Assembly (NCBI RefSeq): GCF_056746865.1
Contig: NZ_CM163382.1
Strand: one strand, 5' to 3'
DNA: 64,000 nucleotides
Each line of letters opens with the position of its first letter. Positions within the stretch are counted from its first letter, which is position 1. This document shows positions 4,081 through 4,521 of this stretch, piece after piece. Made by a program: the position numbers and the translations under genes. Below the pieces are notes generated by a model. The model saw only the letters and a list, made by a program, of their open reading frames with translations, did no database searches and was not told the DNA's origin.

Positions 4081-4521
4081 GATACCCTTCTAACAATATC
4101 TACCTTCACCCCGTAAAAGATGGGTTTGGCAGCACACTTGCCCTATATCTACTCATTTTTACTGCAACAGGTTGAAATCTCAGCACTGTCAGAAAGCGCT
4201 GATGACTAAACAGCCCTGGGCCGGGCGATGTAACCATCATACAGAATCCTGATAGCGAAATATGGCGTGACTCGATACTTCACTCTGCAATGCGTTCCTT
4301 GATGAATTCGCAGGCCCGTGATACACGGGACAAGTCGCTGAATGACGACAATGTCCTGGAAATCAGCGAACCGCGTATCCGGAGTACATTTGAGCGACTG
4401 TACCAGAACATGAATGAGGCGTTTGGATTAGGTGATTATTAGTTGGGCTAAGCATTTTTGTATTATTATTTTCCGGTTGAGGGATATGGAGATATCGACA
4501 ACAACCGGAAAAAGTTTACGT

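Follow-up and report, generated by a model that had tools for sequence, protein, structure and literature searches.

Between the tRNA gene argW and the 3' end of the sucrose permease gene cscB lies a spacer of 441 bp (positions 4081-4521 of the 64,000-nucleotide stretch of contig NZ_CM163382.1 analysed here, hereafter the window), and within it an open reading frame. Is this frame a gene, a chance run of codons, or what is left of a mobile element? A sequence-only reading of this DNA had described an orphan frame of about 80 codons without a convincing start or ribosome-binding site. It had proposed either a relic of an element that delivered the csc genes or formerly occupied the argW site, or a small unannotated gene. 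The neighbouring genes are those that it had named, and the features of the region are collected in Table 1.

Table 1. Features of the region from yfdC to dsdA in window coordinates; gene coordinates were taken from the annotated strain 118UI, which is 99.985% identical over window 4005-10521.
Feature	Position	Strand	Remarks
yfdC	2998-3930	+	upstream of argW
argW, tRNA-Arg (CCU)	4006-4080	+	ARAGORN; Rfam tRNA 63 bits
unassigned, 66 nt	4081-4146	.	between tRNA end and detectable pseudogene
putative DUF4942 pseudogene, upstream piece	4147-4197	+	frame of 4081; residues 38-54 of 280
internal deletion and frameshift zone	4198-4205	+	about 55 nt, residues ~55-75 missing; holds both TGAs
putative DUF4942 pseudogene, main frame	4206-4442	+	78 codons plus TAG; residues 76-151 of 280
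junction zone, truncated DUF4942/csc cassette	4426-4453	.	terminal TAG 4440-4442 inside
cscB 3' flank, part of csc cassette	4454-4521	-	hairpin with 11-bp stem, 4469-4512
cscB, sucrose permease	4522-5769	-	intact; selection control
cscK	5831-6754	-	
cscA	6970-8403	+	
cscR	8411-9406	-	
dsdX, 5'-truncated	9649-9867	+	pseudogene flag in RefSeq
dsdA	from 9885		

The frame itself is real. Translation of 4083-4445 (...KR-stop-stop-LNSPGPGDVTIIQNPDSEIWRDS...AFGLGDY-stop) contains 78 codons free of stops (4206-4439), which begin LNSPGPGDV after two TGA codons (4200-4205) and close at a TAG (4440-4442). The limits first proposed, 4190-4442, are thus correct at the 3' end and lie slightly too far upstream at the 5' end. 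The sole canonical in-frame start, ATG 4290, would give a product of 50 aa, and no Shine-Dalgarno-like sequence precedes this ATG or the ATA at 4260. No sigma70-like promoter match was found in 3900-4650, and Rfam matched the tRNA alone in the spacer region. Stop-free runs of at least 78 codons occurred in 1435 of 5000 shuffles of the spacer (29%), so that the length of the frame alone is not beyond chance. This figure, together with the absent start and Shine-Dalgarno sequence, would suit a chance open frame in non-coding DNA, either a 3' UTR of cscB (the refutation that the sequence-only reading had itself named) or a trailer of argW. It is homology to the DUF4942 family, not length, that makes the frame non-random. 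This homology is highly significant at both the protein and the nucleotide level and refutes the 3' UTR reading; furthermore, the cscB flank that is conserved in other genera stops at 4454, outside the frame. A chance origin is scarcely credible.

The main frame matched Pfam PF13708 (DUF4942) with 40.4 bits (E 3.3e-10, profile positions 5-62 of 190), which passes the gathering threshold of 25 bits, and scored 65.4 bits against a family HMM built here. Intact 280-aa DUF4942 proteins of about 50% identity were located by tblastn of plasmid records. In tblastn against one intact protein, WP_001280481 (280 aa, EDL933), the main frame covered residues 76-151 with 38 of 76 positions identical (50%, E 1e-19). 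The homologue search suggested earlier therefore gave a clear family, and the frame is no orphan. Nor is it unannotated in many RefSeq genomes, where it is called as a 'DUF4942 domain-containing protein' of 50-73 aa. The DUF4942 domain occupies residues 87-276 of the intact protein, so that about 70% of it is gone from the fragment: 58 of the 190 profile positions are kept, and a complete domain in an intact ORF of about 280 aa was not found at this locus. By its sequence, the argW-side frame is a homologous fragment of a DUF4942 gene and would not be a functional member of the family.

No closely related intact copy was found among 5426 complete E. coli genomes, in which the best paralogues were at most about 75% identical in nucleotide sequence. 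HMMER, run exhaustively against 1.8 billion representative proteins, gave non-fragment relatives of about 50% amino acid identity at best and none above about 57%, and a word-indexed protein search with the 78-aa fragment recovered only the locus itself from other genomes, without any intact relative. For the function of the family there was no PDB sequence match, PADLOC hit or NCBIfam hit; a partial resemblance to the PHROG 'DNA methyltransferase' is the sole functional lead, and we propose no function.

A second piece of the same gene lies upstream of the two TGA codons. Positions 4147-4197 align without gaps to nt 111-161 of the EDL933 DUF4942 gene (35 of 51 identical), with a score of 32 that was reached by none of 1000 shuffles (17.8 ± 2.2). 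At the protein level this piece is weak (HMM 3.8 bits, with 74 of 2000 shuffles as good; -0.1 bits for 4081-4205 alone), and the claim is made on the nucleotide alignments and not on the protein score. Consistent with it, the intact paralogues H96 and H97, identified by blastn of the 5426 genomes, align to query positions 17-295 (window 4147-4425) in two pieces. They span 334 nt where the relic has 279, and therefore about 55 nt, corresponding to residues ~55-75, have been deleted from the relic. Homology to intact DUF4942 genes ends at about 4425-4438, and nucleotide homology to the paralogues at 4425. These alignments indicate that the relic lacks residues 1-37, ~55-75 and 152-280 as well as its reading frame, and that both ends of the gene are gone.

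The 66 nt between the tRNA and this upstream piece were compared separately. Upstream of about 4131-4147 nothing matched intact DUF4942 genes significantly, and the 66 nt showed no similarity to the left end of the island in L004 (ETEC L7_E1373). A counterpart about 60-65% similar follows directly after the att core in L014, a divergent Escherichia (strain SCPM-O-B-8794). The segment 4076-4150 occurs in 2630 genomes, a count in line with that of the relic, and nowhere else in the E. coli set. The 66 nt may have belonged to the 5' part of the DUF4942 gene and decayed strongly, or may derive from the left end of the lost island.

If the frame still encoded a protein, its coding capacity should be maintained across carriers. 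Three of nine aligned alleles (L008-L010) have an in-frame TGA at codon 59 (4380-4382). An exact 61-mer containing this TGA occurs in 1428 genomes; the same query matched 2588 and the spacer carriers number 2644, so that about 54% of carriers have the nonsense allele and about 46% keep the full 78-codon frame. Indels also vary from allele to allele and, with the TGA allele, leave no frame that is intact across carriers. In the allele alignment, which is a small sample (9 alleles, 7 distinct sequences), the relic has 7 synonymous, 17 nonsynonymous and 2 nonsense changes over 234 nt, distributed 6:11:9 over codon positions 1:2:3. In the same genomes cscB (1248 nt) has 40 synonymous, 10 nonsynonymous and no nonsense changes, distributed 13:3:34. 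The pairwise dN of the relic is about 10 times that of cscB, for which dN/dS is 0.02-0.10, and the total divergence of the relic (1-6%) equals the synonymous divergence of cscB. Some pairwise dN/dS values of the relic are well below 1, and these derive from small counts. Overall, the substitutions are near the neutral ratio without an excess at third positions, and thus do not indicate purifying selection.

The start of the frame varies as well, and no conserved start codon with a ribosome-binding site was found. In the window, the frame of an ATG at 4202 (MTKQPWAGR) differs from that of the relic, and in allele P0001 the two coincide (MTKQPWPGDV, 79 aa); a 1-nt difference is the likeliest cause. 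RefSeq annotation (PGAP) starts the stump at ATA (L001 and L007), CTG (L011) or ATG, at three positions, with products of 50, 60 or 73 aa, or calls no gene. The stump in L001, L006, L007 and L011 is represented by several distinct WP_ accessions for one pseudogene. In L014, which is about 90% identical to the window in csc, a more decayed orthologue of the relic occupies the corresponding place, with the argW core on one side and cscB on the other; it has 69% identity, further deletions and an internal stop. The presence of this orthologue in a divergent genome indicates that the scar is old.

These data bear on whether the fragment is a functional small protein of 50-79 aa with its own start, which might, for example, modulate the full-length DUF4942 proteins that other islands of the cell encode. 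In favour of this, the window and nearly half of the carriers have an open frame, PGAP calls a CDS at the locus in many genomes, allele P0001 offers an in-frame ATG for 79 aa, and in many carriers other sites hold 1-7 intact DUF4942 paralogues (up to 8 places per genome) on which such a product could act. Against these points stand the TGA at codon 59 in at least 1428 carrier genomes, the near-neutral substitutions, the shifting annotated starts, the lack of a Shine-Dalgarno or promoter-like site, the small part of the domain retained and the further broken orthologue in L014. We consider such a gene very improbable, and the suggestion of a small unannotated gene is not borne out. More improbable still is the specific proposal that the open alleles yield a protein, comprising the N-terminal third of the domain, which works in trans on the full-length DUF4942 proteins that most carriers have on other CP4-type islands, e.g. 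as a decoy or dominant-negative; if that were true, the nonsense allele would be a lineage-specific loss of activity.

Where do intact DUF4942 genes lie? All four loci examined have the gene at the outer edge of a CP4-type island, pointing out of the island into the chromosomal flank, in the order DUF932, antirestriction, RadC, DUF987, CbeA(/CbtA), DUF5983, DUF957, DUF4942 and then the flank. The flanks are infA (EDL933, at the serW/infA side), kpsF (a Klebsiella record) and ileX (strain ET665); the ileX flank was counted in two views of one ET665 island (L012/L022). This island runs back more than 49 kb from DUF4942 to AlpA and YfjI-type genes. Its DUF4942 gene is convergent with ileX (tRNA-Ile, L012 4834-4909) and stops about 100 nt short of the 3' end of the tRNA gene, which is the reverse of the classical polarity (tRNA, then int, then the remainder of the island). 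Islands thus seem to occur in two arrangements with respect to the tRNA. None of the island partner genes lies beside the relic; the gene order here is yfdC, argW, relic, cscB, which is not the usual context of the family. Also, no intact version of the relic's island was found at argW in the 5426 E. coli genomes. What the locus does combine is homology to an island gene, truncation with frameshift, and an adjoining tRNA att site, as in an island remnant.

Several elements have been documented at the argW hotspot (PMC11251922, PMC4366372, PMC3032704). The final 15-23 nt of the tRNA gene (4058/4066-4080) form the att core that present-day argW prophages reuse: identity to the window resumes at 4058 in the prophage-bearing L006 and L007 and at 4066 in the phage record L023, and in P22-like and other prophages the attR core, formed by the argW 3' end, abuts window 4081. 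The same CTGCAGGGGACACCA core adjoins the spacer in L014. In L006 and L007 the prophages lie downstream of argW, with attR next to the relic. In L001 (118UI) a prophage with a minus-strand tyrosine integrase lies immediately upstream of a complete argW; the spacer of this strain is 100% identical, and in the comparison of L001 1-5925 with window 1-4004 identity to the window begins exactly at 4005. L004 has a different arrangement (2794-5000), in which argW is followed by a 282-nt N-terminal stub of a P4-type integrase, by ISEc46 (tnpA and tnpB) and then by window 4445 onward. The relic is deleted there, and ISEc46 abuts the sequence 2 nt past the relic stop codon.

Another possibility is that the fragment arrived together with csc, having belonged to the vehicle (an island or phage) of the sucrose genes, and was not resident at argW beforehand. 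The linkage of the relic to csc is nearly perfect: of the 5426 complete E. coli genomes, 2644 have the spacer and 2648 have cscB, and about 2620 share the same two junctions. A common arrival would account for this, and for the match between the carriers of 4076-4150 and those of the relic; tight linkage is equally expected from a single insertion of csc into a pre-existing scar. A CscB scan of species-representative genomes identified csc loci in two Citrobacter genomes (CscB 91-92% identical in protein sequence). In these (L015, L019), homology to the window covers 4454-9447 only, at 80-83% nucleotide identity, and the neighbours are a chemoreceptor (MCP) gene, fbp and mpl, i.e. a different chromosomal site. 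No DUF4942 gene adjoins cscB in the Citrobacter loci, and the relic (4147-4442) lies outside the region shared with this genus. Furthermore, in L014 as in the window the relic comes straight after the argW att core, as argW-resident DNA would. The Citrobacter loci do not support the idea that the relic belonged to an element that delivered csc, and we regard arrival with csc as improbable, though less so than a functional small protein.

Relic and cscBKAR do occur together in four records of 'complete' Escherichia phage genomes, a further point for joint delivery, and csc has been described in four coliphage records (PMC11251922). These records (ON470594.1, i.e. L023, ON470589, ON470608 and ON470622; P22-like Lederbergvirus and others) hold host DNA that comprises the argW attR core, the DUF4942 relic and cscB-cscK-cscA-cscR to window ~9794 (L023 8861-14589). 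They read past the normal attR core into host DNA and so do not support delivery of csc by phage. They look like cases of a mis-set prophage boundary, or are possibly aberrant excision products.

The same comparison places the edge of csc. Since DUF4942 homology ends at 4425 and Citrobacter homology starts at 4454, the junction lies within 4426-4453. The cassette is 5.0 kb long, its right end lies about 41 nt past the cscR start, and about 200 nt of unassigned sequence (9448-9648) lie between it and the 5'-truncated dsdX. According to the literature, csc replaced dsdC and part of dsdX (PMC4366372, PMC3032704), and the junction shows that the left breakpoint of this replacement would have lain inside an older island scar. 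The cscB side of the junction carries a hairpin (4469-4512, minus strand) with an 11-bp stem, 10 nt downstream of the cscB stop, whose minus-strand RNA fold has -17.3 kcal/mol (z -3.3). The flank with this hairpin is kept in Citrobacter (L015, L019) and in the divergent L014. The hairpin fails the simple terminator pattern, as it is followed by an A/U-rich stretch without a clean U tract, and is a likely candidate for the cscB terminator.

Taken together, 4206-4442 and 4147-4197 are very probably a non-functional, internal remnant of a DUF4942 pseudogene, the scar of a CP4-type island that once lay between argW and dsdC. The homology, the truncations, the internal deletion, the frameshift, the nonsense allele, the relaxed constraint, the linkage to csc and the absence from Citrobacter are all directly observed. 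Of the possibilities raised at the outset, the one that stands is the relic of a former element at the argW site, now recognizable as an internal, frame-shifted and doubly truncated piece of the outermost gene of such an island. From the position and orientation of the fragment we infer that the island had integrated at argW itself; the order and mechanism of the deletions are likewise reconstructed. In this reconstruction, a CP4-type island would have separated argW from dsdC. Since the relic points in the direction leading away from argW, the island body would have been on the argW side, between the tRNA and the fragment. A deletion reaching from the tRNA end as far as the 5' part of DUF4942 would then have taken out this stretch of the island. 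Subsequently, the 5.0-kb csc cassette (4454-9447) would have replaced the DNA from about DUF4942 codon 152 through dsdC into dsdX, and the scar would since have been inherited passively with csc while decaying neutrally. One observation speaks against this layout: in the ileX island and at the serW/infA side DUF4942 and the tRNA are convergent, whereas the relic and argW share one orientation. Of the two layouts observed, the reconstruction takes the one found at kpsF, in which the body separates DUF4942 from the tRNA. The position of the terminal TAG looks accidental, given where the junction lies. The fragment itself would do nothing, and the spacer merely holds the flank of the att core and, past 4454, the cscB 3' hairpin.

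The relic can be compared with several known systems. It resembles the intact island-edge DUF4942 genes (WP_001280481.1 in EDL933; WP_001280435.1 by ileX in ET665) in colinear pieces, with 50% amino acid identity over residues 76-151 and at most about 75% nucleotide identity, and both relic and intact genes occur at tRNA-associated integration hotspots. Unlike them, it is truncated and frame-shifted, lacks cbeA/cbtA, DUF5983 and DUF957 as partners, and evolves without constraint. Like the truncated dsdX (9649-9867), it is a gene stump of the same argW-dsd replacement, one on each flank of 4454-9447. The DUF4942 stump differs from that of dsdX in having an additional, older deletion and a frameshift, and in its annotation: dsdX carries a pseudogene flag in RefSeq, whereas the DUF4942 stump appears as a normal CDS or not at all. 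E. coli K-12 has remnants of other elements at tRNA genes, namely CP4-6, CP4-44 and CP4-57, and CPS-53 at argW. The relic is like these in being the decayed leftover of an element of the P4-integrase type by a tRNA gene, but the K-12 remnants span kilobases and several genes, whereas the argW relic amounts to about 300 nt of one gene. The comparison with cryptic prophage and island remnants of E. coli K-12 also draws on Table 2 of PMC3032704.

The relic is an ordinary pseudogene scar that hitch-hikes with csc, and its homology to DUF4942 was already present in RefSeq annotation. It leaves our knowledge of sucrose and D-serine metabolism and of tRNA-site islands unchanged. RefSeq annotates the scar inconsistently, and a pseudogene flag is warranted. 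Beside the selected csc genes, the relic can be used as a small internal control for the neutral rate. The limits of the csc cassette can be set at window 4454-9447, and the shared junctions would mark a single entry of csc into Escherichia, at a site already scarred by a CP4-type island.
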